Of a stretch of 64,000 nucleotides of DNA, positions 9,816 through 38,920 are shown piece after piece; the first letter of the stretch is position 1; every line of letters begins with the position of its first letter. The notes under the pieces were generated by a model. It had not been told where the DNA came from. It made no database searches and was given only the letters and a program-made list of their open reading frames with translations. Source of the DNA: Tagaea sp. GTDB lineage: Bacteria; Pseudomonadota; Alphaproteobacteria; CACIAM-22H2. A program made the translations under genes and the position numbers. The DNA is taken from contig OZ245864.1 in the NCBI GenBank assembly GCA_965229215.1, positions 3,931,346-3,995,345 of the forward strand. The letters are read 5' to 3'.

Positions 9816-9841
9816 CAGCGCCGCGCTCCGGCCCGGCGCCG

Positions 9842-11719
9842 ATGGGCGATATCGCGATCCAGTTCCTGAACGGGCTCGCCGGGGCGTCCTCGCTGTTCCT
9901 CGTCGCGGCCGGGCTGTCGGTCATCTTCGGCGTCAGCCGGATCGTCAATTTCGCGCACGGCTCGCTCTACATGCTCGGGCTCTATCTCGCCTGGAGCCTC
10001 GTCGGCCATTTCGGGCGCGCGTCGGTTCTCGGCTTCTGGGGCGGCGTCGTGTGTGCGGCGCTCGCGGTCGGGCTGATCGGCGCCGCCATCGAGATGCTGG
10101 TGCTGCGGCGGATCTACCGCGCGCCCGAGATGTTCCAACTGCTCGCCACCTTCGCGCTCGTGCTCGTTGCGAAGGACGCGGCACTCTATGTCTGGGGCGC
10201 TGAAGACCTGCTGGGCCCGCGCGCACCCGGCCTGCGCGGGGCCGTCGAGATCTTCGGGCGGCGCTTTCCGGAATACGACCTGCTGCTGATCGCCATCGGC
10301 CCCGCCGTGCTCGGCCTTCTCTGGCTGCTGATGAACCGCACGCGCTGGGGCACGCTGGTGCGCGCGGCGACCGAGGACCGCGAGATGGTCGCGGCCCTCG
10401 GCGTCGACCAGTCGCGGCTCTTCACCGGCGTGTTCTTCCTCGGCGCGTGCCTCGCGGGGCTGGGCGGCGCGTTGCAGCTGCCGCGCGAGCCGGCACAGCT
10501 GGCACTCGACATCTCCGTCATCTCCGACGCGTTCGTCGTCGTGGTCGTCGGCGGCATGGGGTCGGTCGGCGGCGCCTTCCTCGCGGCCCTGCTGATCGCG
10601 CAGGTCAAGGCGCTGTGCATCGCGGTCGGCGACGTGACGCTGCTGGGCACCGTCTTCTCGTTCAGCAAGTTCACGCTGGTGGCGGAGTTCGTCATCATGG
10701 CCGCGGTGCTGATCGTCCGGCCGTGGGGCCTGCTCGGCAAGCCGCCGGTCGCGGCGCGCGGGGCCGCGGCGCTCGAGCCGCCGATGGCACCGCCCGGCCC
10801 GGTGTTCTGGCCGACGATGCTGCTGCTCACGGTCTTCCTCGCGATGATCCCGCTGGGCGGCGAGGGCTACGCGCTCGTCCTCGCCATCGACATCGCGGTC
10901 TTCGCGCTCTTTGCGGTCACGCTGCATTTCCTGATGGGGCCGTCGGGCATGGTGTCGTTCGGGCATGCGGCCTATTTCGGGCTCGGCTGCTACGGGGCGG
11001 CACTCGCCTTCCTGAAGCTGCAATGGCCCGCGGAGGCCGCCCTGCTTGCGGCACCGCTCGCGGGCGGGCTTGGCGCCTTGCTGTTCGGCTGGTTCTGCGT
11101 GCGGCTGTCGGGCGTGTATCTCGCGATGCTCACGCTCGCCTTCGCGCAGATCGCCTGGTCGGTCGTCTTCCAGTGGGATGCGTTCACCGGCGGCTCGAAC
11201 GGTCTCGTCGGCCTGTGGCCGCAGGGCTGGGCGCGGGAGCGCACGCTGTTCTACTGGGCGGTGCTGGGGACGAGTGCCGCCGCGATCTTCCTGCTGTGGC
11301 GCATCGTCCACGCGCCGCTGGGCTACGCGCTGCGCGCGGCGCGCGATTCCACGCTGCGCGCCGAGGCGATCGGCATCGACGTGCGCCGCGTGCGCTGGAT
11401 CGGCTTCGCGCTCGCCGGCGCGTTCGCGGGCCTCGCAGGCGGGCTCTTCGCGTTCTCGAAGGGAAGCATCTCGCCCGAGGCTCTGGGCGTCGCCCGCTCG
11501 GTCGACGGGCTCGTCATGGTGCTGCTGGGCGGCGTGCAGACGCTGACGGGGCCGGTGCTGGGGGCCGCCGCCTTCACGCTGCTGCAGGACGAGATCGCGC
11601 GCGGCACCGACTATTGGCGCGCCGTGCTGGGCGGGGCGATCCTCGTCCTCGTCCTCGCCTTTCCCGCCGGCATCGCGGGTGCCTTGAAACGCCTCTTCGC
11701 GCGGGAGGACGGGCGATGA
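9842..11719 (+). CDS. Branched-chain amino-acid ABC transporter permease, fused LivH-LivM type (625 aa)
   Basis: Two consecutive permease modules with a LivH-like N-terminus and a LivM-like C-terminus. High GC3. Confidence 0.85.
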   Translation: MGDIAIQFLNGLAGASSLFLVAAGLSVIFGVSRIVNFAHGSLYMLGLYLAWSLVGHFGRASVLGFWGGVVCAALAVGLIGAAIEMLVLRRIYRAPEMFQLLATFALVLVAKDAALYVWGAEDLLGPRAPGLRGAVEIFGRRFPEYDLLLIAIGPAVLGLLWLLMNRTRWGTLVRAATEDREMVAALGVDQSRLFTGVFFLGACLAGLGGALQLPREPAQLALDISVISDAFVVVVVGGMGSVGGAFLAALLIAQVKALCIAVGDVTLLGTVFSFSKFTLVAEFVIMAAVLIVRPWGLLGKPPVAARGAAALEPPMAPPGPVFWPTMLLLTVFLAMIPLGGEGYALVLAIDIAVFALFAVTLHFLMGPSGMVSFGHAAYFGLGCYGAALAFLKLQWPAEAALLAAPLAGGLGALLFGWFCVRLSGVYLAMLTLAFAQIAWSVVFQWDAFTGGSNGLVGLWPQGWARERTLFYWAVLGTSAAAIFLLWRIVHAPLGYALRAARDSTLRAEAIGIDVRRVRWIGFALAGAFAGLAGGLFAFSKGSISPEALGVARSVDGLVMVLLGGVQTLTGPVLGAAAFTLLQDEIARGTDYWRAVLGGAILVLVLAFPAGIAGALKRLFAREDGR

Positions 11720-23959: not shown

Positions 23960-25576
23960 ATGACCGATTCCCCCGCACCCCTTTCTTCCGCCCCGCCGAC
24001 CCGCGCGGACGCGATGAAAGGCCGTGCGTGGCCGTTCGAGGAGGCGCGCCGCCTCGTCGCGCGCACCGGCGAGAAGGTCCCGGCCAAGGGCTACGTGCTG
24101 TTCGAGACGGGCTACGGTCCCTCGGGCCTGCCGCATCTGGGCACGTTCGGCGAGGTCGTGCGCACGACGATGGTGCGCAAGGCCTTCGCGATGCTGTCCG
24201 ACGTGCCGACCAAGCTGTTCGCCTTCTCCGACGACATGGACGGCCTGCGCAAGGTTCCCGACAACATCCCCAACGGCGAGATGCTGGCGAAGAACATCGG
24301 CATGCCGCTGACGGCGGTGCCCGACCCGTTCGGCAAGTTCGACAGCTTCGGCGCGCACAACAACGCGATGCTGCGCGAATTCCTCGACCGCTTCGGCTTC
24401 GAGTACGAGTTCGTGTCCTCGACGCAGATGTACAAGTCGGGCAGGTTCGACGCGACGCTGCTGAAGGTGCTGCGCGGCTATCGCGCCATCATGGACATCA
24501 TGCTGCCGAGCCTGCGCGAGGAACGCCGCCAGACCTATTCGCCCTTCATGCCCGTGTGCCCGAAGACCGGCCGCGTGCTGCAGGTGCCGACGGTGGAGAC
24601 GAAGCCGGAGGCGGGCACCATCGTCTATCGCGACGAGGCGGGAAATCTCGTCGAGACGCCGGTGACGGGCGGGGCATGCAAGCTGCAATGGAAGATCGAC
24701 TGGGCGATGCGCTGGACGGCGCTCGAGGTCGACTACGAGATGTCGGGCAAGGACCTGATCGATTCGGTCAAGTACTCGTCCAAGGTCGCGCGCGCCATCG
24801 GCGGCAAGCCGCCGGAAGGCTTCACCTACGAGCTCTTCCTCGACGAAAAGGGCGAGAAGATCTCGAAGTCGCGCGGCAACGGCCTGACGATCGAGGAATG
24901 GCTGAAGTACGGGCCGGCCGAAAGCCTGTCGCTGTTCATGTACCAGCAGCCCAAGGCCGCCAAGCGCCTGCATTTCGACGTGATCCCGCGCCACGTCGAC
25001 GACTATCTGTCGTTCGTCGAGCGATTCCGGACGCAGAACGTGCAGCAGAAGCTCGACAATCCGGTCTTCCACATCCACGGCGGCGAGCCGCCGGCGCCGG
25101 AAGCCAACGGCCTGCCGTTCAGCATGCTGCTCAATCTCGTCGGCGTGGCGAACTCGCTCGACAAGGACGTGCTGTGGGGCTTCATCAGCCGCTATGCGCC
25201 CAAGGCTTCGCCGCAGACGAACCCGATGCTCGACCGGCTGGTCGGCCATGCGATCGCCTATTTCCGCGACTATGTCGAGCCCACGCGCGTGTTCCGTGCG
25301 CCCAGCGACATGGAGAAGGCGGCCCTTGCCGATCTCGATGCGTGCCTGGCGAAGCTTGCGCCCGACGCGAGCGCGGAAGAGATCCAGAACGAGGTCTACG
25401 CGGTCGGCAAGCGCCACCCGTTCCCCGAACTGAAGGCGTGGTTCCAGTCGATGTACGAGACGATGTTCGGCGCGAGCCAGGGCCCGCGCATGGGCTCGTT
25501 CATCGCGCTCTACGGAATCGCACCCACGCGCGCGCTGATCGCGCGCGTGCTGTCGGGCGAGATGTCGAAGGCCTAG
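23960..25576 (+). CDS. lysK: Lysine--tRNA ligase, class I (archaeal-type LysK)
   Basis: Class-I HIGH-like motif (GLPHLGT) and KMSKS (KISKSRGN). 538 aa. Confidence 0.9.
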
Positions 25577-25690
25577 ACCCTCACCCCGCAACGTATACGT
25601 TGCGCCTCTCCCGCAAGCGGGAGAGGGGACGCTCACGACAAGCTCGCTAGATCACCCTCTCCCGCTTGCGGGAGAGGGCAGGGGTGAGGG
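25577..25690. repeat. REP-like nested palindromic element pair (inverted copies of CCCTCACCCC...CTCTCCCGCAAGCGGGAGAGGG)
   Basis: Copy 1 (25577-25627) carries the inner perfect palindrome GCAACGTATACGTTGC plus CTCTCCCGCAAGCGGGAGAG. Copy 2 (25655-25690) is its reverse complement without the insert. Confidence 0.6.
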
Positions 25691-25692
25691 CC

Positions 25693-26331
25693 TTACTGGC
25701 TGACCCAAAGAATGCGGTGGCAGAACACGACGTCGGAGATGTCGAACGTGCGTTCGGCGTGCGCGGCGTTGAGGCTGGTCAGTTCCAGCTTGCGCTGGCC
25801 CTTGCGGATCAGCTGCTTGGCCATCACTTCGCCGGCCGTCGTCTTGACGACGACGCGGTCGCCGCGGCGCAAGCTGGCCTGCGGCGAGACGACGATCGTG
25901 TCGCCGTCGCGATAGACCGGCTCCATGCTGTCGCCCGCCACCATCAGCGCGTAGGCGTGCGTGTCGGCAAGCTCGGGGAACAGCAGTTCGTCCCAGCCCG
26001 TACCGGTGGGATAGCCGGCGTCGTCGAAGAAGCCCTTCTCGCCCGCCTGCGCATAGCCGATGACGGGGACACGGCGCATGGCGCCGGCCACGCTCGGCAC
26101 CGTGCCGATATAGCCGACGAACTCCGACATCGTGGCGCCGGTCGCCTCGAGGATCTTCGAGATGCTCTCGGTCGACGGCCAGCGCGGCCGGCCGTCGCGC
26201 GACACGCGCTTCGACTTGTTGAAGGTGGTGGGATCGAGGCCGGCGCGGCGCGCGAGACCCGACGGGGAGAAGCCATGATCGCCTGCGAGCTGATCGATGG
26301 CCTGCCAAACATCTGCGTGACGGAGAATCAT
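25693..26331 (-). CDS. S24-peptidase / phage-repressor-like (COG2932, LexA-like) transcriptional regulator
   Basis: N-terminal HTH (GFSPSGLARRAGLDPTTFNKSKR) plus a C-terminal S24 autopeptidase with Ser (GDSMEP) and Lys (IRKGQRK). 212 aa. Divergent from the phage-like cluster. No GTTC-N7-GTTC SOS box upstream. Confidence 0.8.
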   Translation of the reverse strand: MILRHADVWQAIDQLAGDHGFSPSGLARRAGLDPTTFNKSKRVSRDGRPRWPSTESISKILEATGATMSEFVGYIGTVPSVAGAMRRVPVIGYAQAGEKGFFDDAGYPTGTGWDELLFPELADTHAYALMVAGDSMEPVYRDGDTIVVSPQASLRRGDRVVVKTTAGEVMAKQLIRKGQRKLELTSLNAAHAERTFDISDVVFCHRILWVSQ

Positions 26332-26476
26332 GTGTGAATTTTTACTCAGGTTGTTGCGGATTGCATTAGGTATGTATGCCAATTTGAATTTCAAAAAGAA
26401 ATATTCCTTATATCCAAACGGACTGCTTCCCTTTATCAAGTTGTTTCCAATTTGTTCTGTAAACCGGAGATGGCGG

Positions 26477-26944
26477 ATGATGGCGGGCGCGAAGGCGGCG
26501 GGAAGGGGCGGGCGGACGATGGAAGGGGCCGTCGCGTCGGACGATGCGGCCGCCCTCGTCGTGTTCCGCGACCAGACCGAAATCGCCTGGCTGCGGGGCC
26601 TGCGCCGCGGCTTCCGGCACTGCGCGGTCTGGGTGCGCGCCGGCGACCTGTGGGTCGTGCAGGAAAGCCTGTCGAACCGGACAATTCTGGGGGTCTGGCA
26701 GGCCGACCGGGAGGCCGATCTGGTGGCCGCCCTGCGCCGCGCCGGGCACCGGGTCGTGCGCGCCCGGATCCGGCCGGCGCCGCGGCGCCTCGCCCCGCCG
26801 CTGCCCTTCAGCTGCGTGGAGGCGGTCAAGCGCGTGCTCGGCATCCATGCCTGGCATGTGCTGACGCCCTGGCAGCTCTACCGGCATTTGATCCGGGGCT
26901 CTCGAAAATCACATTTGACAATTACCCTAAATAGGAATATTTAA
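26477..26944 (+). CDS. Hypothetical protein, first gene of the phage-like cluster (start 26477 or 26519)
   Basis: Very high GC3 in this frame, versus low GC3 in the overlapping alternative frame. Flanked by AT-rich islands. No recognised family. Confidence 0.5.
   Translation: MMAGAKAAGRGGRTMEGAVASDDAAALVVFRDQTEIAWLRGLRRGFRHCAVWVRAGDLWVVQESLSNRTILGVWQADREADLVAALRRAGHRVVRARIRPAPRRLAPPLPFSCVEAVKRVLGIHAWHVLTPWQLYRHLIRGSRKSHLTITLNRNI
26915..26943 (+). promoter_or_regulatory. Candidate σ70-type promoter ahead of the portal operon
   Basis: TTGACA (26915-26920) followed by a 17-nt spacer and TATTTA, within an AT-rich island. Confidence 0.35.
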
Positions 26945-27053
26945 AGTTTCAGGCTCATAAATCGAGCTCTTTCCGGCTCCTTCCAGTCCTTGAATGGCTC
27001 TGGAGGGGCCGGAAATAGGTACGGATACCGTCCCCTCGAACCGGAGATGTCCC

Positions 27054-27275
27054 ATGGGTGGTTTTTTCTCGCCGTCGATTCCCGAACCCCCGCCGCCCCC
27101 GCCGATGCCGGCGTTGCCCGAGCCGGTCGATCCGGACAAGGAAGCGCGCGAGGCGCGCATCAAGGCGATGATCCGCCGCCGTCGCGGCCGGGCCGGCCTC
27201 GTGGCGACGGGCGAGCGCGGCGTGCTGCTCGCACCCGCTGCCGCGCAGGGCCTCGCCTCGAAGCTCGGGGAATGA
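27054..27275 (+). CDS. Small Pro-rich hypothetical protein (73 aa), translationally coupled to the portal gene
   Basis: GGAGA RBS and near-perfect GC3. Stop overlaps the portal start (ATGA). Sequence MGGFFSPSIPEPPPPPPMPALPEP. Confidence 0.5.
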   Translation: MGGFFSPSIPEPPPPPPMPALPEPVDPDKEAREARIKAMIRRRRGRAGLVATGERGVLLAPAAAQGLASKLGE

Positions 27276-28795
27276 CGATGGCCGAGATCCGATCCGAAAC
27301 GGCCCCGCGCGACACGCTCGCCCGCTTCCGCCGCGCCCGCCAGGCGCGTGGCGCCTGGGAGCCCGCGTGGCAGGATTGCTACGAGTTCGCGATGCCGCAG
27401 CGCGTGGCGTCGGGCGGCGGCGAGCGGCGCGGCGAACGCCTGTTCGACGCGACCGCCGGCGATGCGGCCGAGCAGTTGGCCGCATCGCTGATGTCGCAGC
27501 TTGTACCCCCGTGGTCGCGCTGGTTCGGCCTGCAGCCGGGCGGCGACGTGCCCGAGGAACACCGCGCGGCGCTCGGCGAGGTGCTGGAGAAGGCGGCCGC
27601 ATCGTTGCAGGCGCATTTCGACCGCTCGAACTTCGCCATGGAGATCCACCAGTGCTTCCTCGACCTCGTCGTCGCGGGCACGGCGATGCTGCAGTTCGAG
27701 GAGGCGCCGGCGGGCGCGGACTCCGCGTTCCGCTTCGCGGCCGTTCCGCTGGCGAGGCTGGCACTCGACGAGACCTCGGAGGGCGCGTTCGACATCGTCT
27801 TCCGCACGAGCGAGCTTTCGACCGAGCGGCTGGTCGAGCGTTTCCCGGACGCGGCGCTGCCCGACGCGCTGCGCAAGCCCGATCCGCGCGGCGGGGCCGA
27901 GCGCAGGCACACGATCGTCGAGGCGATGTTCGCCGAACGGCCCGGCTACCGCTACATGGCGCTGCTGGAAGACGGCGGCGACGCGTCGCAGCCCGTCGTG
28001 CTCGCCGAAGGGAATTTCGCGCAGCCGCCCTTCCTCGCCTTCCGCTGGCTCAAGGCGCCGGGCGAGGTCTATGGCCGCTCGCCCGTGATGAAGGCGCTGC
28101 CCGACATCAAGACCGCGAACAAGGTCGTCGAGCTCGTGCTGAAGAACGCCTCGATCGCCGTCACCGGCATCTGGCAGGCCGACGACGACGGCGTGCTCAA
28201 TCCCGCCAACATCCGCCTGCAGCCGGGCACGATCATCCCCAAGGCGGTCGGCTCGGCGGGCCTCACGCCGCTGGAGGCGCCCGGCCGTTTCGACGTGTCG
28301 AACCTCGTGCTCGACGATCTGCGCGGCCGCATCCGGCATGCGCTGCTCGCCGATCGCCTCGGCCAGGTCGACAGCCCGACGATGACGGCGACCGAAGTGC
28401 TCGAGCGCTCGGCCGAGATGTCGCGCATCCTCGGCGCCACCTACGGCCGCCTGCAGGCCGAGCTGCTTACGCCGCTGATCGCGCGCGCCATCGCCATCCT
28501 GCACCGGCGCGGCGAGATCCCGCCCGTGCTGGTCGACGGCCGCGTGGTCGAGCTCCAGTACAAGTCGCCGCTGGCGCTGGTGCAGGCGCAGGCCGACGTG
28601 CGCAACGCGATGCTGTGGATCACGCAGGCGGCCAGCCTCGGGCCCGAGGCGATGGCCGTCGTCGACGCGGGCGCGGCCGCGCGCTGGATGGCGCGCGCGC
28701 TCAGCGTGCCGCCCGATCTCGTGCGCCCGCCGGCCCCGGCCGCGGCGCCGTTGCAGATGCTCGCGCAGGCTCTCTCCGCCCAACCCCGGCAATGA
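27272..28795 (+). CDS. Podovirus (T7 gp8-like) head-to-tail connector / portal protein
   Basis: 507 aa. Collinear similarity to T7 gp8, including W.P.WQDC..F..P, the YGRS motif and TATEVLERSAEMSRILGATYGRLQAELLTPLI (compare T7 TAEEIRYVASELEDTLGGVYSILSQELQLPLV). Confidence 0.85.
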   Translation: MTMAEIRSETAPRDTLARFRRARQARGAWEPAWQDCYEFAMPQRVASGGGERRGERLFDATAGDAAEQLAASLMSQLVPPWSRWFGLQPGGDVPEEHRAALGEVLEKAAASLQAHFDRSNFAMEIHQCFLDLVVAGTAMLQFEEAPAGADSAFRFAAVPLARLALDETSEGAFDIVFRTSELSTERLVERFPDAALPDALRKPDPRGGAERRHTIVEAMFAERPGYRYMALLEDGGDASQPVVLAEGNFAQPPFLAFRWLKAPGEVYGRSPVMKALPDIKTANKVVELVLKNASIAVTGIWQADDDGVLNPANIRLQPGTIIPKAVGSAGLTPLEAPGRFDVSNLVLDDLRGRIRHALLADRLGQVDSPTMTATEVLERSAEMSRILGATYGRLQAELLTPLIARAIAILHRRGEIPPVLVDGRVVELQYKSPLALVQAQADVRNAMLWITQAASLGPEAMAVVDAGAAARWMARALSVPPDLVRPPAPAAAPLQMLAQALSAQPRQ

Positions 28796-28809
28796 AGGAA
28801 GGAACGACC

Positions 28810-29526
28810 ATGACCGATCCGATCGCAGCTCCCCCCGCACCGCCCGCACGTCCCGACCATGTGCCCGAGAAATTCTGGGATGCGGGAAGCGGGCAGGTCC
28901 GCGTCGACGCGCTCTCGAAATCCTATGCGGAACTCGAGCGCAAGCTCTCCGGCATGATCCCGGGGCCGAAATCGCCCGAATGGGAGCAGAGCTGGCGCAG
29001 GGCCGCCGGCGTGCCCGATGCGCCCGACGGCTATCGCATCGCGCCCAAGGACGATCTCGTCGCCGTCGATGCCGACGTGAACCGCCGCCTGCATGCGGCC
29101 GGCTTCACGCCGCAGCAGGCCCAGCTCGTCTACGACCTGGCGGTCGAGCGGCTGGTGCCGATGGTGCAGGACTATGCGGGTTCCTACCGTGCCGAACTCG
29201 CGCACGAGAAGCTCGTGGCGGAATTCGGCGGGGCGGAGAAGTGGGCCGCCCTCGCCCCGCAGATCGCGCGCTGGGGGCAGAAGAACCTGCCGGCACCCGT
29301 CTACGACGCGCTCGCCTCGACGCCCGAGGGAATCCGCGCGCTGCACCGGATGATGAATTCGGGCGAGCCCAGCCTGCGCGGCTTCGGCGCGCCCGCGGCC
29401 CCGGCCAGCGAGGACGACCTGCGCAGGCTGATGGCCGACAAGCGCTACTGGCGCGACCACGATCCGGCGATCGTGCGCACCGTCACCGAAGGCTTCAGGC
29501 GCCTCTATCCCGAACGCGAAAAGTGA
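28810..29526 (+). CDS. Putative scaffolding protein (position-equivalent to T7 gp9)
   Basis: 238-aa acidic helical protein lying between the portal and capsid genes. AAGGAAGG RBS. Assignment is by synteny only. Confidence 0.45.
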   Translation: MTDPIAAPPAPPARPDHVPEKFWDAGSGQVRVDALSKSYAELERKLSGMIPGPKSPEWEQSWRRAAGVPDAPDGYRIAPKDDLVAVDADVNRRLHAAGFTPQQAQLVYDLAVERLVPMVQDYAGSYRAELAHEKLVAEFGGAEKWAALAPQIARWGQKNLPAPVYDALASTPEGIRALHRMMNSGEPSLRGFGAPAAPASEDDLRRLMADKRYWRDHDPAIVRTVTEGFRRLYPEREK

Positions 29527-29536
29527 GAAAGACGGC

Positions 29537-29609
29537 TTGACAGGATGACAACTTAAGATTATATTCAAGACAACGTGCCGCCCGTGCTTGCCGCGGAGAA
29601 CGGCACGTT
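29537..29609 (+). promoter_or_regulatory. Near-consensus σ70 promoter (TTGACA-N17-TATATT) plus 5'-UTR hairpin upstream of the capsid gene
   Basis: TTGACA at 29537-29542 and TATATT at 29560-29565. Inverted repeat AACGTGCCG (29572-29580) / CGGCACGTT (29601-29609). Confidence 0.5.
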
Positions 29610-29707
29610 CCCTTCACATCTCCCGCGAAACGGGGTCGGCGCATCCATTTGCGATGCACCGGCAACCCTCGCTTGCGGGTCCCCCAACCGGTCACACAGA
29701 GGGACCC

Positions 29708-30520
29708 ATGCCCGACATCGACAAGGCTTTCGTCAAGCAATACGAGAACGACGTCCATCTCGCCTTCCAGCGGATGGGCTCGAAGCTGCGCACGAGCGTG
29801 CGCACGAAGAAGAACGTCCAGGGCGCTTCGACCGTCTTCCAGAAGATGGGTCGCGGTGCCGCGACGACCAAGGCGCGGCACGCGGCCGTGCCCGTCATGA
29901 ACGTGGACCACGCGACCGTCGAGGTTTTCCTGAAGGACTACTATGCGGGCGAATGGCTCGACGCGCTCGACGAGATCAAGGGGCCGAGCGACGAGCGTTC
30001 GGCGGTCGTGAATTCCGGCGCCTACGCGCTGGGGCGCAAGACCGACGAGCTCATCATCGACGCGCTGCAGACCTCGACGAACTTCGCAGGCACGGCGGCC
30101 GACGGCCTCACCAAGGCCAAGATCCTCGAGGCCTTCGAGAAGCTGGGCGCGTCCGACGTGCCCGACGACGGCGACCGCTGCGCGGTCATCGGCTGGAAGC
30201 AGTGGAGCGAGCTGCTCCAGATCGAGGAGTTCGCCAACGCCGACTATGTCGGCGAGGACGAGCTGCCCTGGCAGGGCACGCAGGCCAAGAAGTGGCTCGG
30301 CACGCTGTGGATGCCGCATTCGGGCCTGATCGCGGCCGGCGGCGTGCGCTCGTGCCACTGGTACCACAAGGCGGCCGTCGGCCACGCGTCGGGCTGCGAG
30401 GTCAAGTCGGACGTCACCTGGCACGGCGACCGCGCGTCGTTCTTCATCAGCAACATGATGAGCCAGGGTGCCGGCATCGTCGATGCGGCGGGCGTCGTCA
30501 CGCTGCGCTGCAAGGAGTAG
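29708..30520 (+). CDS. Major capsid protein (T7 gp10-like, HK97 fold)
   Basis: 270 aa. N-terminal region resembles T7 gp10 (TSVRTKKNVQGASTVFQKMGRGAA vs SISSGKSAQFPVLGRTQAA). Sits between the scaffold-like and tubular genes. AGAGGGA RBS. Confidence 0.65.
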   Translation: MPDIDKAFVKQYENDVHLAFQRMGSKLRTSVRTKKNVQGASTVFQKMGRGAATTKARHAAVPVMNVDHATVEVFLKDYYAGEWLDALDEIKGPSDERSAVVNSGAYALGRKTDELIIDALQTSTNFAGTAADGLTKAKILEAFEKLGASDVPDDGDRCAVIGWKQWSELLQIEEFANADYVGEDELPWQGTQAKKWLGTLWMPHSGLIAAGGVRSCHWYHKAAVGHASGCEVKSDVTWHGDRASFFISNMMSQGAGIVDAAGVVTLRCKE

Positions 30521-30531
30521 GGAGAAAACAG

Positions 30532-30801
30532 ATGGCCTTCGAACTCAAGAACCTGTCCGTGCTCGCCTACGCCAACGGCTTCACGCTCTGGCACTACACC
30601 ACGCCGGATGCGGCGGCCGCCGTCGACGACGCGGGCTATTTCGACGCCGCCGCCGACATGCTGCGCGCGGGCGACATGATCCTCGCCAACACCGCCACCG
30701 GCGGCGGCGCCCAGAGCGGCGTCTTCGCGGTGGCGGGCGTGGCGGCCGGATCGGTCGATGCCGCGAGCCTCACGCCGTTCGGCGCGTCCAACCCCGACTG
30801 A
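30532..30801 (+). CDS. Small hypothetical virion-associated protein (89 aa)
   Basis: GGGAGAAAAC RBS. High GC3. Lies between the capsid and tail tubular A genes. Confidence 0.45.
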   Translation: MAFELKNLSVLAYANGFTLWHYTTPDAAAAVDDAGYFDAAADMLRAGDMILANTATGGGAQSGVFAVAGVAAGSVDAASLTPFGASNPD

Positions 30802-30868
30802 GACCCGGAAACCGGCGGGCGGGTTCTTCCGCCCGCCGGATCTTCCCCAGGAATTCCAGGAGAACCCG

Positions 30869-31438
30869 ATGGCCCTCACGTCCATCGCGCTGTGCGCGCG
30901 CGCCCTCGTCAAGCTCGGTGCCCGGTCGATCGCCTCGTTTGACGAGGGTACGGCCGAAGCCGAGATCGCGGCCGTGCTCTATCCCTCGATCCGCGACGGG
31001 CTGCTGTCCGCGCACCCGTGGAGCTTCGCGACCGCGCAGGCGTCGCTCGCGCGCCTCGCGCGCACGCCGGTCGCCGACCATGCCCACGCCTACCAGCTTC
31101 CCGCCGATTTCCTGCGCGCCCTTTCGCTCGGTTCCGGCACGCGCGGGCGGGGCACGGAGTACCGGATCGTCGAATCGGCGCTGCACTGCGACGCCGACGC
31201 GGTCGTGCTTTCCTACGTGTTCCGGCCCGACGAGACCGGCTTCCCGCCTTTCTTCGACACGCTGCTGATCGCGACGCTCGCGGCCGAATTCTGCCTGCCG
31301 GTGACCGAGAGCACGACGCGCGCCGAACTGCTGCGCCGCACGGCCGAATCCGAGTTCCGCCGCGCGCGCCTGATCGACGCCCAGCAGGACACGCCCCAGC
31401 GCATCGAGGACTTCACGCTGGTGGAGGCGCGCCGATGA
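30869..31438 (+). CDS. Tail tubular protein A (T7 gp11-like)
   Basis: 189 aa, close in size to T7 gp11 (196 aa), with a similar N-terminal pattern (ARALVKLGARSIASFDEG vs NDILASIGEPPVSTLEG; HPWSF vs RGWTF). Confidence 0.7.
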   Translation: MALTSIALCARALVKLGARSIASFDEGTAEAEIAAVLYPSIRDGLLSAHPWSFATAQASLARLARTPVADHAHAYQLPADFLRALSLGSGTRGRGTEYRIVESALHCDADAVVLSYVFRPDETGFPPFFDTLLIATLAAEFCLPVTESTTRAELLRRTAESEFRRARLIDAQQDTPQRIEDFTLVEARR

Positions 31439-33342
31439 GCGTCGTGCGCCTTGCCAAGACGAGCTTCGCCTCGGGCGAGATCGGCCCCGCGATGTACGGC
31501 CGCAGCGACCTGCGCGCGTTCGAGAACGGCGCGCGCACGCTGCGCAACGTTTTCGTGCAGCCCTCGGGTGGCGTGCGCCGCCGGCCGGGCCTCGTGCATA
31601 TCGACCTGCTGCCCGGCCCTGCGCGCCTGATCGGGTTCGAGTTCAACACCGAGCAGGCGTATCTGCTCGCGGTGCTGGGCGGCGAGACGCGCGTGTGGCG
31701 CGAGGACGAGCGCGTCGCGACCTTCGCCACGCCCTGGTCGGCCGCGCAGATCGGCCAGCTCGCCTGGACGCAGAGCGCCGACACGCTGCTCGTCGTGCAT
31801 CCCGACGTGCCGCCGCGGCGCATCACGCGCACGTCGGACACCGCGTGGAAGGTGGAGCCGTGGGCCTTCTTCGAGGAGAAGGGCATCTGCCGGCAGCCCT
31901 ATCACAAGTTCGCGGCCGACGAGGTGACGCTGACGCCGAACGGCACGGCCGGCACGGTGACGCTGAGCGCCTCGGCCGACGTGTTCGTCGCCGGGCATGT
32001 CGGGCTGCGCTTCCGCGTGCAGACGAAGGAGATGAAGATCGATGCCGTGGCGGGCCCGCGCACGGCCACGGCCACGCTTTGCACCGAGCAGACGCTGCCC
32101 GACACGAGCGCGACGCGCGACTGGGAGGAGCAGGCCTTCTCCGACGTGCGCGGCTGGCCGGTCAGCGTCACGTTCCATCAGGACCGGCTGGTGATCGGCG
32201 GCTCGCGCGACCTGCCCAACCGGCTGTGGCTGTCGAAATCCGGCGACCTGTTCAATTTCGACCTGGGTACCGGCCTCGACGACGAGGCGATCGAGTTCGC
32301 GCTGCTGTCCGACCAGGTCAACGCGATCCGGCACGTCTTCTCGGGCCGCCACCTGCAGGTCTTCACGTCGGGGGCCGAGTGGATGGTGTCGGGCGAACCG
32401 CTGACGCCCGAGAACGTCCAGCTCGACCGCCAGACCCGCATCGGCAGCCCGATCGACCGGTCGGTGCGCCCGCGCGACGTCGACGGCGCCACGCTGTTCG
32501 CCGGGCGCGGCGGGCGCGACCTGCGCGAGTTCCTGTTCGCCGACGGCGAGCAGGCCTATCAGGCGACGGATCTGGCGCTGCTCGCACCCCATCTGGTGCG
32601 CGATCCCGTCGCCATCGACTACGACCCCGACGACCGGCTGCTGCATGTCGTCAACGCCGACGGCACGCTCGCGACGCTGACGGTCTATCGCGCCGAACAG
32701 GTGACGGCGTGGACGCTGCAGACCACGCAGGGCGCGTTCCGCGCGGTCGCGGTGGCGGCGAACGAGACGTATCTCGCCGTCGAGCGCGACGGCGCATGGT
32801 CGATCGAGAGCTTCGATGCGGACTACGCGACCGATGCGGCCGTCTGGATCGAGCCGCCGGCCGGTGCGGCGCACTGGTCGGGGCTTTCGCATCTCGACGG
32901 CAAGGCGGTCGAACTCGTCGGCGACGGCGTGCCGCTGGGCACGACCGTCCCTGCGGGCGGCAAGGTGCCGGTGCTTGCACCCGTCGCGGAACTCGAAGCC
33001 GGCCTCGGCTTCGTTTCCGTCATCGAGCCGCTGCCGCCGTCGCTTGCGGCAGCGGGCGGTGCCAGTCCGCGCAGCGTGCGCCTGATCGAGGCGACGTTCC
33101 GCCTGCTGGAGGCGCGCCAGATGCGCCTCGACACCGGCAGCGGCCCCGTCGACGTGCCGTTCCGCGCCTTTGCGGCGGGCGGAATGCTCGACCGGCCGGT
33201 CGCCGGCTTCACCGGCGAGAAGCGCGTGCGTGCACTCGGCTGGAAACGCGCGGGCGTCGACGCGCTGTGGCGCATCGAACTGCCGGCACCGCTGCCTTTC
33301 ACGCTGCTCTCCGTAACCCAGGAAATGAAGGTGAACGACTGA
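31435..33342 (+). CDS. Tail tubular protein B (T7 gp12-like)
   Basis: 635 aa. N-terminal similarity to T7 gp12 (SFASGEIGP...R.D.....NG......GGVRRRPGL vs NLKGGISQQP..LRYPDQGSRQVNG.....GLQKRPPL). ATGA overlap with the tubular A gene. Confidence 0.8.
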   Translation: MSVVRLAKTSFASGEIGPAMYGRSDLRAFENGARTLRNVFVQPSGGVRRRPGLVHIDLLPGPARLIGFEFNTEQAYLLAVLGGETRVWREDERVATFATPWSAAQIGQLAWTQSADTLLVVHPDVPPRRITRTSDTAWKVEPWAFFEEKGICRQPYHKFAADEVTLTPNGTAGTVTLSASADVFVAGHVGLRFRVQTKEMKIDAVAGPRTATATLCTEQTLPDTSATRDWEEQAFSDVRGWPVSVTFHQDRLVIGGSRDLPNRLWLSKSGDLFNFDLGTGLDDEAIEFALLSDQVNAIRHVFSGRHLQVFTSGAEWMVSGEPLTPENVQLDRQTRIGSPIDRSVRPRDVDGATLFAGRGGRDLREFLFADGEQAYQATDLALLAPHLVRDPVAIDYDPDDRLLHVVNADGTLATLTVYRAEQVTAWTLQTTQGAFRAVAVAANETYLAVERDGAWSIESFDADYATDAAVWIEPPAGAAHWSGLSHLDGKAVELVGDGVPLGTTVPAGGKVPVLAPVAELEAGLGFVSVIEPLPPSLAAAGGASPRSVRLIEATFRLLEARQMRLDTGSGPVDVPFRAFAAGGMLDRPVAGFTGEKRVRALGWKRAGVDALWRIELPAPLPFTLLSVTQEMKVND

Positions 33343-33914
33343 TGGGCGCTCTCACGATTCCACAGATGATGATGGCGCAGACCGCCATGGCGGGCGCGGG
33401 CCTCGTCCAGGGCCTCGCCAATTCGCATGCCGCCGCTTCGCAGGCACAGGCGCAGGCCCGCGCGCAGGCGCAGATGGCGCAGGCACAAGCCGAACGCCAG
33501 CGCGAGCTGCTCGACCGGCAATACGCATCCGAGACGCGCCGGCGCACCAACCTGCTCGAACGCGCGACCGCCAAGGCGCGCGTCTCGTTCGGCGCGCGCG
33601 GCCTGTCGCCGACCGACGGTTCGGCGGGCGCATTGCTCGACGGCATCGAGACCGATTTCGGCCTCGACGAGGCCGAGCGCACGCAGGATTACGGCATGCG
33701 CCGCTCGGCCCTCGACGCCGGGCTCGCGGACTCGCTGCAGCGCATCGATTTCGCGACAGGCCGAAACCTTCTCGACCGCGAGTCCGACATCCAGCGCCGC
33801 GTCCTCGGCCTGCTGAACTGGGGCACGCGCAGTTTCGGACGCGGCGGCGGATTGCCGCGCGGCCCGGTCGGCGACTTCCCCGTCAATTCCGGCCTCTACG
33901 ACAACCTTGCCTGA
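33342..33914 (+). CDS. Small internal virion protein candidate (190 aa, Gln/Ala-rich; gp13/gp14 position)
   Basis: AQ-rich low-complexity N-terminus (AASQAQAQARAQAQMAQAQAERQ). Lies between the tubular B and tail fibre genes. Confidence 0.4.
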   Translation: MGALTIPQMMMAQTAMAGAGLVQGLANSHAAASQAQAQARAQAQMAQAQAERQRELLDRQYASETRRRTNLLERATAKARVSFGARGLSPTDGSAGALLDGIETDFGLDEAERTQDYGMRRSALDAGLADSLQRIDFATGRNLLDRESDIQRRVLGLLNWGTRSFGRGGGLPRGPVGDFPVNSGLYDNLA

Positions 33915-33925
33915 GGAGCACTGAC

Positions 33926-36574
33926 ATGAGCGACCACATCAAGATCGCCGCCAAGCTGCCGCGCTGCCGCTATCGCGCGAACGGCATGCAGCGCGTCTTC
34001 ACGTTCGATTTCGCCGTCTTCCGGCCCGAGGATGTCGAGATCCGCATCGACGGCACGCCGGTCGCGGGCGGCTATGCCGTCGCGGTCGGCGCACTCGGCA
34101 CGGGTGCCGCCACGCTCGACGCGGCACCCGCCGACGGCGCCATCGTCACGCTGAGCCGCCGCCTCGTCGTGCGGCGCGAGACGGATTTCCAGGAAGGCGG
34201 CGAGCTGCGCGCCAAGACGCTCAACGACGAGCTCGATTTCCAGACGGCCGCTCTCCAGCAGGTCGAGACGGCCGCCGCGCGCGCCCTGCATCTGCCGGTC
34301 GACGATCCGGACGATGCCACGACGCAGCTTCCGCGCGCGACGGCGCGCGCGAACCGCGCGCTGGTGTTCGATGCGGCCGGAAATCCGGCCGTGTCGGCCG
34401 ACCTCTATGCCGACCAGGCGGCGGCATCCGCCGCCAGCGCCGCTTCCGCCGCCGCTTCGGCCGGTTCGGCCGCTTCGGCTTCCGCCAACGCTTCCGATTC
34501 CGCCGTCGCCGCCGCGACGGGCTCGGCATCGGCCGCGAGCTCCGCCGCTTCGGCCGCCGCGCAGGCGACGTCGGCGAGCGCATCGGCGGCAGGTGCGGCT
34601 TCTTCGGCGCTCGCCGCATCCGGTTCGGCCGCATCGGCCGCTTCGGCGGCCGCCGGGCTCTCGGCGCTCGCGATCGCGTGGAATTTCGAATCCGCGGACG
34701 CGATGGCCGAACCCGCGGCCGGGGCCCTGCGCTTCAACGCCGCCACGCCTGCCGGCGCGAGCGCGCTGGCGCTCTCGGCGAACGCGGCCGATCCCGGCAA
34801 TCCCGACATCTCCGGCATCGTCGCCGCGTGGAACGCCAGCACCAGCACGTCGGCGCGCGGCCAGCTCGTGCTGCGCAAGCGCGGTACGCCCGCGACGTTC
34901 GCCGCCTTCAAGGTCTCGGGCGTGACGGACAACGGCGCCTGGCTGCTGGCCGACGTGGTGCCCGTCGCATCGGCCGGAACGTGGAGCGCCGGCGATACCG
35001 CCTATGCCGTCTTCACGGCCGCGGGCGACAAGGGCGACACCGGCAGCCTCGCCGGCGGCGGCTCGCTGACCGCGTCGATTGAGGAAGCCAAGCGGGTCGC
35101 GATTGCCTCCGCCGCGACGACGAACGTGTGGGGCGGGGACGGGAACTTCGTCCACGTCACGGGGAACGCGACGATCGCGAGCTTCGGCATCGCGCCGCAG
35201 GCGGGTTCGCAGCGCACGATCGTGTTCGACGGCGCGCTGACGCTGGTGCATGCGGCACCCGCACTCCAGCTGCCGGGCGGGGCCAGCATCGTCACGGCGC
35301 CGGGCGACCGCGCCATCGTGCGCGCGGACACGCCGGCCAATCACATCGTCGTCGCCTATACGCGCGCCGACGGCACGCCGCTGGCGCTGGGCAATGCCGG
35401 ACCCGTGCAGGCGATCCTTGCGGGCGAAACACTCGCCGACCGCGATCTCGTCTACCAGGACATCTTCAACCAGCGCGGCGGCGGGTCGACGCGCTGGTAC
35501 AGGGTCGATGCCGACGCGACCGGGCCGGTGCGCATCTCGCCGACGATCGGCATCGCGCTGGGCGCGATCGCGGGGGGAAGCACGGGCGCAGCGCAGATCC
35601 GCGCGGGGCGCGTGGCGGGGTTCGCGGGCCTGGTCGCGGGCGGCCCGGTCTGGGCGTCGGCGACGCCCGGCGGCGTGACCCAGTCCCCGCCGCCGCTTCC
35701 GGCGGGCGGCACGCAGCATGCGCTGCGCCTGGTCGGGATCGCGGCGTCGGCGGCCGAGATCGATTTCGCGCCCGACGACGACACGCTGTTCGTGAAGACC
35801 GGCGACGCGCTCGCGCACGGCGGCGTCCTGACGGTCGAGCACTGGAGCGATGTCGGCGCGCCCGACCGCGTGCCCTATGCCTCGACGATCGCGCAGGTCT
35901 TCGCGACGACCGTTTCGCGCGGCGCCGGCTCCAACGGCACCACCTACAACGGCTACACCGTGCGTCTCAGGTTCGCCGCGAGCGTGCTGTCGACGTCCGG
36001 AAGCCGGGTGCGCGTCACGTTCAAGGCGGGCGGCACGCAGCCGCTTGCGGTGAACAACGCCTATATCGGCGAGGCGGCGGCCGGCGGCAACGCCTGGGAT
36101 TTCGCAGCATCCCCCGCGCGCCTCACCTTCGGCGGCGGCGCCAACGGGTTTTCCATTCCCGTCGGCGCGAGCATCGTCTCCGACAGCGTCGTGTTCGCGC
36201 TCGACGAGGCGAAGAGCCACATCGTCTCGCTCGAAGTGCCGAGTGCGGGCGGACCATACGGCACGGACTACACCTCCGTGCCGGCCGGCTGGTCGACCTA
36301 CTACAAGTTGGGCGGCGTGGCGGATGCCGGCGCGGTGGCGCCCGGCGGATACAGCCAGGATTCCGCGAACACATATCTCGTCACGGCGGTCGAGGTTCTC
36401 GTCGTCACCCGCCGCGAGCCCGAGCCGGTCTTTCCCGAGGCGCGCTTCGCGGGCGCCGCCGACAGGGTCACCTGCCGCTACGACGACGGGGCGGGCGGCA
36501 ACGCCGACACGCGCACGAGCTTCGTGAACCGGACCGGCGCGCTGCAGGCGCTCGCCGTCGAGGTGCAGCTGTGA
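33926..36574 (+). CDS. Tail fibre protein (T7 gp17-like N-terminal adaptor domain, Ala/Ser-rich shaft, C-terminal beta-rich domain)
   Basis: 882 aa. N-terminus (IKIAAKLPRCRYRANGMQRVFTFDFAVFRPEDVEIRIDGTPV) parallels T7 gp17 (IKTVLTYQLDGSNRDFNIPFEYLARKFVVVTLIGVDRKVL). Contains a long A/S repeat region. Confidence 0.7.
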   Translation: MSDHIKIAAKLPRCRYRANGMQRVFTFDFAVFRPEDVEIRIDGTPVAGGYAVAVGALGTGAATLDAAPADGAIVTLSRRLVVRRETDFQEGGELRAKTLNDELDFQTAALQQVETAAARALHLPVDDPDDATTQLPRATARANRALVFDAAGNPAVSADLYADQAAASAASAASAAASAGSAASASANASDSAVAAATGSASAASSAASAAAQATSASASAAGAASSALAASGSAASAASAAAGLSALAIAWNFESADAMAEPAAGALRFNAATPAGASALALSANAADPGNPDISGIVAAWNASTSTSARGQLVLRKRGTPATFAAFKVSGVTDNGAWLLADVVPVASAGTWSAGDTAYAVFTAAGDKGDTGSLAGGGSLTASIEEAKRVAIASAATTNVWGGDGNFVHVTGNATIASFGIAPQAGSQRTIVFDGALTLVHAAPALQLPGGASIVTAPGDRAIVRADTPANHIVVAYTRADGTPLALGNAGPVQAILAGETLADRDLVYQDIFNQRGGGSTRWYRVDADATGPVRISPTIGIALGAIAGGSTGAAQIRAGRVAGFAGLVAGGPVWASATPGGVTQSPPPLPAGGTQHALRLVGIAASAAEIDFAPDDDTLFVKTGDALAHGGVLTVEHWSDVGAPDRVPYASTIAQVFATTVSRGAGSNGTTYNGYTVRLRFAASVLSTSGSRVRVTFKAGGTQPLAVNNAYIGEAAAGGNAWDFAASPARLTFGGGANGFSIPVGASIVSDSVVFALDEAKSHIVSLEVPSAGGPYGTDYTSVPAGWSTYYKLGGVADAGAVAPGGYSQDSANTYLVTAVEVLVVTRREPEPVFPEARFAGAADRVTCRYDDGAGGNADTRTSFVNRTGALQALAVEVQL

Positions 36575-38058
36575 GCGAGCCCGCACCGCCGAGTTTCCCC
36601 GACTTCGTCGAGCAGTGGAACGCGCTGCAGGGGCTCGCGACGCCCGCCGTGCACCGGCGCATGGCCGACTGGCTTGCCGACGCGCGCGCGGACCGGGCGA
36701 CGGGCCTGGTGCTGCTCGCGTTCCGCTCCAGCGGCAAGTCGACGCTGGTCGGCCTCTTCTGCGCCTGGCTGCTCGCCTGCGATCCCGACCTGCGGGTGAT
36801 GGTGCTGGCGGCGGAAGAGGCGCTGGCGCGCAAGATGGTGCGCAACGTCAAGCGCATCGTCGAGCGCCATCCGGCGACCGCGGGCCTCAAGCCCGCGCGC
36901 AAGGAGCTGTGGTCGGCCGACCAGTTCGTCGTCGAGCGGCGCGCGGAGCTGCGCGACCCCTCGATGCTGGCGCGCGGGCTTGCGGGCAACATCACCGGCA
37001 GCCGGGCCGACATCGTCATCTGCGACGACGTCGAGGTGCCAAACACCTGCGACACGCACGCCAAGCGCGCCGACCTGCGTGCGCGCCTGCTCGAGATCGA
37101 CTACGTGCTCGTGCCCGGCGGGCTGCAGCTCTATATCGGCACGCCGCACAACTACTATTCGATCTATGCCGACGCGGCGCGCGAGGAGGCGGGGGAGACG
37201 GCGCCGTTCCTCGACGGCTTCCGCCGCCTGTCGGTCCCGGTCCGCGACGCGGCGGGCGACAGCGCGTGGCCCGAACGCTTCGACGACGCGCGGATCGGGG
37301 CGGTGCTGACGCGGACCGGTCCGCTCAAGTTCCGCGCGCAGATGATGCTGGAGCCGGTCGCCGACGGCGCCTGCCGTCTCGATCCGGACCGCCTCGTTCC
37401 CTACGACCTGCCGCTCGACTATTCGGAAGGCAACGGCCAGCCGGTGCTGTCGATCGGCGGGAAACGCATGATGTCGGCAAGCTGCTGGTGGGACCCGTCC
37501 TACGGCTCGCCCGACGGCGACCGGTCGGTCGTCGCCATCGTCTTCACCGACGAGGACGGGCATGCCTGGCTGCACGACATCGCGTACCTGTCGGTGCCGC
37601 AAGGCGACGCGCGCGGCGACGAGGCAAGCGCCTTCTGCCGGCAGGTCGCCGAATTCGCGCGGCGCAACCACGCGCCGGGCGTGCGCATCGAGACCAACGG
37701 CCTCGGCGGCTTCCTGCCCGGCATCCTGCGCAAGGAGATGTCGGCCGCCGGCATCGGCGCCGCCGTGACCGGCGCGCACAGCCGCGTCGCGAAGGCCAAG
37801 CGCATCCTCGACGCGTTCGACGCACGGCTCGCCGCCGGCATGCTGCATGCGCACGCGCGCATCCGCGAAACGCCGTTCCTCGCCGAGATGCGCGAATGGC
37901 GGGCCGACATCCCCGGCATCCGCGACGACGGGCTCGACGCCGTCGCCGGCTGCCTTGCGAGCGAACCGTTGCGTCTCGCGCCCGCCCCGCGACCCGAGCG
38001 CGCGGACTGGCGGCCGGGGGCGCCCGCGCGCCTCGTGCCGAGCGATTTCGAGATCTGA
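36571..38058 (+). CDS. Terminase large subunit (T7 gp19-like)
   Basis: GTG start overlapping the fibre stop (GTGA). Walker A (AFRSSGKSTLVGL). Acidic nuclease-domain residues. 495 aa. Confidence 0.8.
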   Translation: MSEPAPPSFPDFVEQWNALQGLATPAVHRRMADWLADARADRATGLVLLAFRSSGKSTLVGLFCAWLLACDPDLRVMVLAAEEALARKMVRNVKRIVERHPATAGLKPARKELWSADQFVVERRAELRDPSMLARGLAGNITGSRADIVICDDVEVPNTCDTHAKRADLRARLLEIDYVLVPGGLQLYIGTPHNYYSIYADAAREEAGETAPFLDGFRRLSVPVRDAAGDSAWPERFDDARIGAVLTRTGPLKFRAQMMLEPVADGACRLDPDRLVPYDLPLDYSEGNGQPVLSIGGKRMMSASCWWDPSYGSPDGDRSVVAIVFTDEDGHAWLHDIAYLSVPQGDARGDEASAFCRQVAEFARRNHAPGVRIETNGLGGFLPGILRKEMSAAGIGAAVTGAHSRVAKAKRILDAFDARLAAGMLHAHARIRETPFLAEMREWRADIPGIRDDGLDAVAGCLASEPLRLAPAPRPERADWRPGAPARLVPSDFEI

Positions 38059-38076
38059 GAAGGAAAGGGAAGCATC

Positions 38077-38373
38077 ATGGACATGTTCGAACTCTCGCCC
38101 GGCCTGGCGCTCGTCGCGGCGTCGGACGCCTCGAGCTTCGGCGCGATCGCCTGGCTCCTCTGGAAGCGCCACCAGGATCACGACCGCGTGCTCGACCGGC
38201 TGCGCCAGGCCTGCCTCGACGAGACGCGCGAGCTGCGACAGGCGCTGGCCGAGTTCAAGCTGGAGGTCGCGCGCGGCTACGCTTCGATCGGCTACATCAA
38301 GGACGTGGAGAACCGCCTGACGGCGCATCTGCTGCGCATCGAGGCGAAACTCGACGGCGCGTCGGGGGGCTGA
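38077..38373 (+). CDS. Small single-TM protein (holin- or spanin-like candidate)
   Basis: 98 aa with one TM helix (ALVAASDASSFGAIAWLLW) then a coiled coil. Follows the terminase gene. Confidence 0.4.
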   Translation: MDMFELSPGLALVAASDASSFGAIAWLLWKRHQDHDRVLDRLRQACLDETRELRQALAEFKLEVARGYASIGYIKDVENRLTAHLLRIEAKLDGASGG

Positions 38374-38374
38374 G

Positions 38375-38920
38375 ATGATTCCGGCATTGATCGCCCAGAT
38401 CGGCCTGCCGCTGCTGGCGAAGCTCGTCGGTGGTGCCTTGTCGCGCGTCGACCATCCGGCCGCGCGCGAAGCCGCGCGCACGCTCGCGGCGGCCGGCGAC
38501 GACCTCACGCCCGAGCAGATCGCCGAAGCCAACCGCCATCTCGAAGCGCTGGCGAAGAGCGAAAGCGAGGAAGACCGCGAGACGCTGCGCGAGGTCAACG
38601 CGTCGCTGCGCGCCGAGGCCGCCAGCGAGGACGCCTATGTAAGGCGCATGCGGCCGACCTTCGGCTACGTGATGGCGGCGACGTGGGCGGCGCAGATGGG
38701 CGCGGTCGCGTGGGTCGTGGTGCGCGCACCCGCCGAAGCGGCCGCGGTGATCGAGGCGCTGGGCGCGCTGTCGGTCGTCTGGTCGGTCGGGCTGTCGGTG
38801 CTGGGCGTCTATGTCTACAAGCGCTCGGCCGACAAGGCCTTGTCTGCGGGGGCCCTGTCGGCGGGCGTGCCGGTGACGGGGCTCGTCGAGCGGCTGCTGC
38901 GGGCAGGAGAACGGCGCTAG
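38375..38920 (+). CDS. Membrane protein resembling 3-TM GTA-type holins
   Basis: 181 aa. Helical N-terminal region then hydrophobic segments near the C-terminus ([41 protein letters not shown]). Last gene of the cluster. Confidence 0.4.

Follow-up and report, generated by a model that had tools for sequence, protein, structure and literature searches.

The divergent control region described here lies in a stretch of 64,000 nucleotides from the alphaproteobacterium Tagaea sp. (GenBank assembly GCA_965229215.1, contig OZ245864.1, positions 3,931,346 to 3,995,345 of the forward strand). This whole stretch is called the window, and positions are counted from its first letter. On one side of the control region is the gene of a repressor-like protein with a helix-turn-helix (HTH) and an S24 peptidase domain, here named S24rep, and on the other side is geneA, the first gene of a phage-like cluster with T7-type particle genes (Table 1). 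A previous reading of the letters alone (the sequence-only reading) had noted that the two genes are transcribed divergently across a gap of 145 bp, and this holds: the intergenic region is 26332-26476 and the ATG of geneA is at 26477. The flanking genes are dinG and lysK on the left, and genes for a chemoreceptor, a cupredoxin-like protein and cytochrome c peroxidase on the right, followed by DUF952 and pyrD. The position of S24rep, divergent at the head of a phage-like cluster, makes a switch of the SOS type plausible. In the reading developed below, to which we give about an even chance, the control region of this domesticated T7-like cluster would be a double SOS lock, held by the host LexA and by the chromosomal, CI-like S24rep. 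DNA damage probably turns the cluster on.

Table 1. Features of the S24rep-geneA region in the window. L001 and L002 are the loci of the two other Tagaea genomes.
Feature	Position	Strand	Description
Nested GC-rich hairpin	25574-25695		Between the convergent lysK and S24rep; -88 kcal/mol, z = -10.8
S24rep	25693-26331	minus	HTH + S24, self-cleaving repressor-like, 212 aa; Pfam, PHROG, family profile
K172 codon of S24rep	25816-25818	minus
S135 codon of S24rep	25927-25929	minus
A96-G97 codons of S24rep	26041-26046	minus
Extended -10-like element of S24rep	26338-26348	minus	TGAGTAAAAAT; invariant in 3 Tagaea genomes
Candidate S24rep operator O_S	26362-26382		TGCATTAGGTA (26362-26372) and imperfect dyad TAGGTA-TGTA-TGCCAA (26367-26382)
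First copy of CCAATTTG	26379-26386	plus	Repeat of the sequence-only reading; overlaps the weak left half-site of O_S; not in L001 or L002
LexA-like box	26443-26457	plus	GTTTCCAATTTGTTC, GTTT-N7-GTTC; one mismatch to GTTC-N7-GTTC
geneA	26477-26944	plus	First cluster gene here, 155 aa; same product in public annotation
P2	26915-26943	plus	Promoter-like site in the 3' end of geneA: TTGACA (26915-26920), 11 nt, TAGGAA (26932-26937), TATTTA
Structural and packaging cluster	27054-38920	plus	Pfam and PHROG assignments; begins with a small gene
Portal	27278-28795		Followed by scaffold
Major capsid	29708-30520
small5	30532-30801		PHROG 18004; followed by tail tubular A, tail tubular B, internal virion protein and an 882-aa fibre
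Large terminase	36571-38058		Followed by a small gene
Holin-like	38375-38920

Together with geneA, the structural and packaging genes make up a cluster of about 12.4 kb (26477-38920). The portal protein is of the T7 type (Head-tail_con, PF12236, E = 6e-134), and the annotation of the window shows neither an integrase nor a replication gene, an RNA polymerase or a tRNA in or beside the cluster. It is not a head-tail cluster of the HK97 type (g2-g15) as in the gene transfer agent (GTA) of Rhodobacter capsulatus (RcGTA), the portal, capsid and tail tubular proteins being T7-like. The sequenced phages closest to the portal are Pelagibacter podophages, with 31-37% identity. The cluster genes are intact, and in comparison with L002 their ratios of nonsynonymous to synonymous substitution rates (dN/dS) lie between 0.13 and 0.34, against 0.30 for lysK; the dN of the portal, 0.155, is close to that of LysK, 0.154.

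A scan of one genome per species gave at least 594 relatives, of which the best 80 loci were kept (L001-L080). The gene order S24rep-geneA-portal-scaffold-capsid recurs in Tagaea, Azospirillum, Magnetospirillum, Telmatospirillum, Defluviicoccus, Terasakiella and many metagenome-assembled genomes. The same order is found in 67 contigs of IMG/VR, where such regions are automatically flagged as prophages. The protein identities follow those of lysK (portal 57-78%, LysK 62-79%). This divergence in step with lysK, together with the dN/dS values, therefore points to a long vertical inheritance of the cluster, as in a GTA. Our literature searches returned no description of this S24 family, nor of a vertically inherited or domesticated T7-like cluster.

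By its domains and residues, S24rep is an HTH-S24 regulator of the CI/LexA type with a full self-cleavage apparatus; the cleavage itself is predicted. It matches Peptidase_S24 (PF00717) with 75.6 bits (3.4e-21; cut-off 23.3), and PHROG 4, 'transcriptional repressor', covers residues 12-211 (3e-29). The N-terminus appears to be of the Cro/C1 type, in contrast to the winged helix of LexA; its match to HTH_26 is weak, with 21.6 bits just under the cut-off of 22, while several homologues carry a precomputed PF13443. In an alignment of the family profile with the C-terminal domain of LexA and UmuD, S119 and K156 of LexA correspond to GDS135MEP and VMAK172 of S24rep. It was the profile alone that reached LexA and UmuD, the single sequence giving no match in the PDB. 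A LexA-like motif, PVIGYAQA96-G97, stands 39 residues ahead of the serine, and we take it to be the cleavage site by its likeness to the VAAG of LexA. A96, G97, S135 and K172 are each retained in 80 of 81 orthologues. The sequence-only reading had proposed a 212-aa CI/LexA-like protein with a Ser/Lys dyad that is not the host LexA, and it was right on both counts: judged by its profile scores S24rep is distinct from LexA, as it attains 32.7 bits with the LexA equivalog TIGR00498, far from the cut-off of 110.95, and gives no Pfam match to the LexA DNA-binding domain. The orthologue at locus L070 has lost G97, S135 and K172 together (replaced by AA, G and M) and is therefore probably a non-cleavable derivative; the serine is also gone from two relatives among the protein matches (P0019 and P0030).

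The public genomes nearest to the window are those of Tagaea sp. (Rhodospirillales), in which the S24rep protein is 93-97% identical; phage repressors are at most about 28% identical over most of its length. This HTH-S24 regulator has more than 8000 relatives, with generic names throughout. The dN/dS of S24rep is 0.09 (against L002), and its N-terminal domain is invariant among the orthologues compared, which fits a conserved target.

Judged by its distribution, S24rep is a gene of the host chromosome and not of the element. Some 30 loci that lack the cluster have an orthologue (57-66% identity, catalytic residues intact) between lysK and pyrD, and the divergent pyrD or DUF952-pyrD lies at a distance of just 63-220 bp; these include Rhizomicrobium, Bradyrhizobium, Xanthobacteraceae and some Acetobacteraceae. 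Therefore, the cluster occupies the junction between S24rep and pyrD, and the element-specific repressor of the sequence-only reading has to be given up.

Two small genes accompany S24rep at the head of the cluster in different lineages. GeneA has 1334 homologues, none of them named, and no match in Pfam, NCBIfam, PHROG or PADLOC. Its alignment contains four invariant residues, H34, C35, C99 and E101 (numbered from the M at 26519). The AlphaFold2 model is confident (pLDDT, the predicted local distance difference test, is 82) and has no Foldseek match in the PDB; the protein may therefore be a small enzyme or a metal-binding protein with a new fold. That geneA could be a permuted papain-like hydrolase, with its His on a strand and its Cys at the start of a helix, was considered and found no support in any test. 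Outside Tagaea, it is geneR, encoding 121 aa, that is directly divergent from S24rep, with geneA following it (in L026, geneR is at 9516-9878 on the minus strand). GeneR occurs in 41 loci and is missing from all three Tagaea loci. From this comparison, it was geneR that originally followed the LexA box described below as the first gene, and Tagaea has lost it by deletion. It has five invariant residues (W26, W28, C32, C53 and H75) and gives no match in Pfam up to E = 1, the PrtN family included. None of its fold matches is significant; the weak likenesses are to transcription factors, the best of them to the antiterminator Q21 (template modelling score 0.45, E = 3), besides a viral 'transcriptional regulator' (E = 0.22).

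The intergenic region between S24rep and geneA had been described as an AT-rich island of about 30% GC. It is indeed the 145-nt stretch with the lowest GC content of the window (which has about 69.5%), at a value of 37.2% (34.1% for 26332-26460). In an alignment of three Tagaea genomes (the window, L001 and L002), only three intergenic blocks are invariant: the S24 start codon with GAATTTTTxCTCA, TGCATTAGGTA (26362-26372) and GTTTnnnnTTTGTTCT (26443-26458). The repeats that the sequence-only reading had offered as operators do not stand. The copies of CCAATTTG, placed there at 26388 and 26448, are found at 26379 and 26447, the first coordinate having been 9 nt off. An exact 8-mer repeat is expected in 16% of composition-matched shuffles, both copies are unconserved in the two other Tagaea genomes, and the second is the spacer of the LexA-like box GTTTCCAATTTGTTC. 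GAATTT has two copies, at 26336 and 26386, which is trivial in AT-rich DNA. Being at chance level and unconserved in Tagaea, both motifs were ruled out as operators. It is very improbable, therefore, that an element-specific CI acts on CCAATTTG and GAATTT repeats with LexA uninvolved. The CI-like divergent layout and the lack of an exact SOS box in the window would agree with such a mechanism, but it conflicts with the state of these repeats, with the S24rep orthologues in element-free genomes, and with a near-canonical box that is orthologous to exact boxes elsewhere.

The LexA motif of Alphaproteobacteria is GTTC-N7-GTTC (PMC8565304). No exact copy exists anywhere in the 64 kb, as had been stated before and used as an argument for an element-specific repressor, but the box with a single mismatch, GTTT-N7-GTTC, had been missed. 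The gap between this box and the ATG of geneA is 18-19 nt, and the same spacing is seen to the ATG of geneR in L026. In the three Tagaea genomes its half-sites are conserved and its spacer is variable; other genera have exact boxes at the same place, and the GTTT variant is also present in the Azospirillum oryzae group. Boxes were counted within 200 bp upstream of S24rep, with shuffled controls for the rate. Among loci with geneR, 17 of 41 contain an exact box and 31 of 41 one with at most one mismatch; the corresponding counts are 0/3 and 3/3 in Tagaea, 1/36 and 2/36 in loci with neither geneR nor geneA, and the control rates are 0.006 and about 0.11. The box is therefore associated with the first promoter of the element and not with S24rep. 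In the alignment across genera, about 27-33 nt separate it from a conserved TTGACA ahead of it, and it would therefore cover the likely transcription start.

Some lineages retain only parts of this arrangement. In seven loci of Acetobacteraceae (L042, L043, L048, L052, L054, L063 and L078), S24rep is followed by an exact LexA box, geneR, a homologue of small5 and then pyrD; the retention of geneR and small5 alone suggests a use that is independent of particles. In the Azospirillum oryzae group (L009-L013), a span of 10 kb gives matches only to S24rep, geneR, geneA, portal and scaffold; genes for capsid and tail are missing or replaced, and the cluster is therefore decaying in this lineage. A link to the mitomycin-inducible particles with 10-kb DNA of Azospirillum lipoferum/B510 (PMC3899980) is unsupported, since the loci of the A. 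oryzae group give portal and scaffold only.

The association of the box with the element is one ground for the main rival explanation, which we regard as possible yet on the doubtful side: LexA alone could control the cluster, and S24rep could be an independent, ancient and autoregulated host regulator, perhaps of pyrD/DUF952 or of distant targets, next to which the ancestral prophage merely inserted. Not only does the box track the element rather than S24rep, but S24rep is also divergent from pyrD in the cluster-less loci, and its own motif is present there too. What opposes control by LexA alone is that many genera, and also 37 IMG/VR contigs, have kept the divergent layout and a tight promoter geometry. 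The motifs in front of S24rep bear on the same question.

In 38 loci, an equivalent of TGAGTAAAAAT is conserved as TGnGACAAT-N6-ATG, the ATG of S24rep thus lying 6-7 nt past the -10-like element, and there is no Shine-Dalgarno sequence. The S24rep mRNA is therefore probably leaderless, made from what is probably an extended -10 promoter. Further upstream, TTCCTA is fixed at 38-41 nt from the ATG in 38 loci, in the form TACCTA in Tagaea and Defluviicoccus. Together with a weaker left half-site, TAkGAA, ten nt upstream of TTCCTA, it forms an imperfect dyad of 16 bp; in the sites of the position weight matrix (PWM), the G is present in 24 of 30. This PWM was built without Tagaea and scanned over all 64 kb, and its top match is the O_S region at 26361-26384 (17.6 bits). 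In cluster-less lineages, this hexamer may point either way or form inverted or everted pairs, which fits the half-site of a transcription factor better than a promoter element. By the usual inference of autoregulation, S24rep would bind this motif in its own promoter. In the genera with geneR, the TTGACA of the geneR promoter directly adjoins another TCCTA copy, which is about 29-30 bp from the first copy in Rhodospirillales and 21-22 bp in Acetobacteraceae. This copy, abutting the -35 of the first promoter of the element, is a further argument against LexA acting alone.

The second-best PWM match of the window, with 12.1 bits, is at 26926-26949, where the TAGGAA of P2 abuts the -10 of a TTGACA promoter-like site. 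An A-rich upstream sequence and the TTGACA are conserved at this position in many genera. P2 thus bears on both sides of the choice between one lock and two: its rank within the window argues against control by LexA alone, and the TAGGAA site, which is not conserved across genera, argues for it. In L015, L016, L020 and L026, strong intrinsic terminators (-19 to -26 kcal/mol with a T run) stand in the leader that separates a P2-like promoter from the structural genes; terminators between geneA and the portal operon are absent in Tagaea. Such leader terminators could serve in attenuation or antitermination control. GeneR as a Q-like antiterminator was rejected as an assignment and kept as a lead, because leader terminators after P2 are found in few genera only and the likeness to Q21 is non-significant.

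Taken together, the double lock, as the best-supported reading, would work as follows. S24rep, translated from a probably leaderless mRNA, would bind the TAGGWA-type dyad, whose centre is about 35-45 bp ahead of the S24rep start, and so regulate itself, and it would probably also bind the TAGGAA at the -10 of P2, which in this genome would feed the genes from portal to holin. The site of the host LexA would be the GTTT-N7-GTTC box that closely precedes the first cluster gene. Upon DNA damage, RecA filaments would promote the self-cleavage of LexA and also of S24rep, the latter between Ala96 and Gly97 by means of Ser135 and Lys172. With both locks open, the particle and lysis genes would be expressed.

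Several observations weigh against this scheme. S24rep is equally conserved where there is no cluster, divergent from pyrD/DUF952, so the cluster is not its only target and maybe no target at all. Conversely, eight IMG/VR loci of about 59% GC (L095, L096, L098, L101, L102, L106, L108 and L110) have the cluster and geneR with no adjacent S24rep; they contain a different divergent gene of 108 aa, no LexA box, and a conserved AATAGGAAAT upstream of geneR. The geneA promoter of the window has a degenerate -35, and here the second copy of the operator is degenerate too; the TAGGAA site of P2 reaches significance in just 8 of the 29 loci. The promoter assignments draw solely on conservation across genera, because a scan of 25500-27400 for the sigma-70 consensus found no promoter. 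The PWM favours AT-rich islands, and a shorter version of it is unspecific, with high scores for TTCCTG sites in coding sequence. Finally, the Tagaea box has its mismatch to the alphaproteobacterial consensus.

In another reading, the Tagaea circuit would be a relic, partly broken, with the cluster silent or under the control of AT-rich-DNA silencing, cell cycle or quorum signals. Such a state would be in line with the loss of geneR from all three Tagaea loci, when 41 others have it, with a stretch upstream of the box that is about 20 nt longer and has a poor -35, and with the failure to find a consensus promoter; counted on the same side is that an inspection of the sequence by eye showed no TTAA-N7-TTAA of the CtrA type. 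We consider it unlikely, since purifying selection acts on the cluster genes, which are intact and have dN/dS values around that of lysK, and since the box half-sites and TGCATTAGGTA count here as the only conserved intergenic blocks in Tagaea.

The components of the double lock are each reminiscent of known systems. S24rep shares with lambda CI and P22 C2 the HTH and S24 domains, the Ala-Gly site, the Ser-Lys dyad, the divergence from the lytic side and a likely leaderless mRNA, lambda cI being leaderless when transcribed from PRM. It differs in being vertically inherited at a fixed lysK/pyrD locus, with or without the element, and here there is no cro-like partner, integrase or tripartite operator. 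As to repeated operators, there is one strong conserved site, with second copies that are clear in other genera and degenerate in the window. Alphaproteobacterial LexA belongs to the same peptidase family and has a GTTC-type box in this control region, whereas the conserved motif of S24rep itself is TTCCTA-like. Dual control by LexA and a phage repressor, with a LexA site in a phage early promoter, is known from CTXphi (RstR and LexA), coliphage 186 (Tum) and GIL01 (gp7). These are mobile phages, in contrast to the immobile element described here, which co-diverges with its host. RcGTA is likewise a compact, structural-only phage-like cluster, vertically inherited in Alphaproteobacteria under purifying selection, but it is HK97-like and controlled by CtrA and GafA, with no neighbouring S24 repressor; the module in Tagaea is T7-like (PF12236 portal, tail tubular proteins).

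The closest parallels in overall design are provided by PrtR/PrtN of the R- and F-pyocins and by AlpR/AlpA, both of Pseudomonas aeruginosa, in which a chromosomal CI-like S24 repressor with RecA-aided cleavage is accompanied by a small regulator gene, beyond which lies a particle or lysis cluster of domesticated phage origin (PMC8609362). In most genera studied here, geneR holds the position of PrtN. It has no PrtN-family match and is missing in the window, a LexA box is added, and the predicted particles have T7-like heads with short tails and are not tailocins. Chromosomal, damage-responsive HTH-S24 repressors outside LexA proper are represented by HdiR and the non-canonical LexA of Bacteroidetes (PMC8565304), and S24rep is likewise an HTH-S24 protein outside LexA proper.

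Beyond the control region, the hairpin between lysK and S24rep holds two copies of CTCTCCCGC-AAG/TTG-CGGGAGAG, and it is probably a bidirectional terminator or an element resembling repetitive extragenic palindromes. A search of 25500-27400 against Rfam gave sub-threshold matches to microRNA models only, mostly on this hairpin. Elsewhere in the window, an open reading frame of 1971 aa is found at 48125-54040, downstream of methylmalonyl-CoA mutase.

The type of repressor is already known; what is new is the combination and its evolutionary setting. More tentatively still, it is possible to speculate that S24rep and the LexA box form the damage switch of an undescribed, vertically inherited 'viriform' across Rhodospirillales, a podovirus-derived GTA-like or killer particle, and that S24rep represents an ancient second family of RecA-responsive repressors in Alphaproteobacteria that predates the element or has survived it where the element was lost. 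If the circuit works as proposed, it would offer a handle on the large and uncharacterised HTH-S24 family with its more than 8000 relatives, as well as on the domesticated T7-like clusters of Rhodospirillales, a class that appears to be undescribed. It would also show how an immobile element can join a LexA site of the host with a CI-like repressor. The variants of the circuit, namely the loss of geneR in Tagaea, the geneR-small5 remnant in Acetobacteraceae and the lone S24rep beside pyrD, could then be used to trace its co-option or decay.

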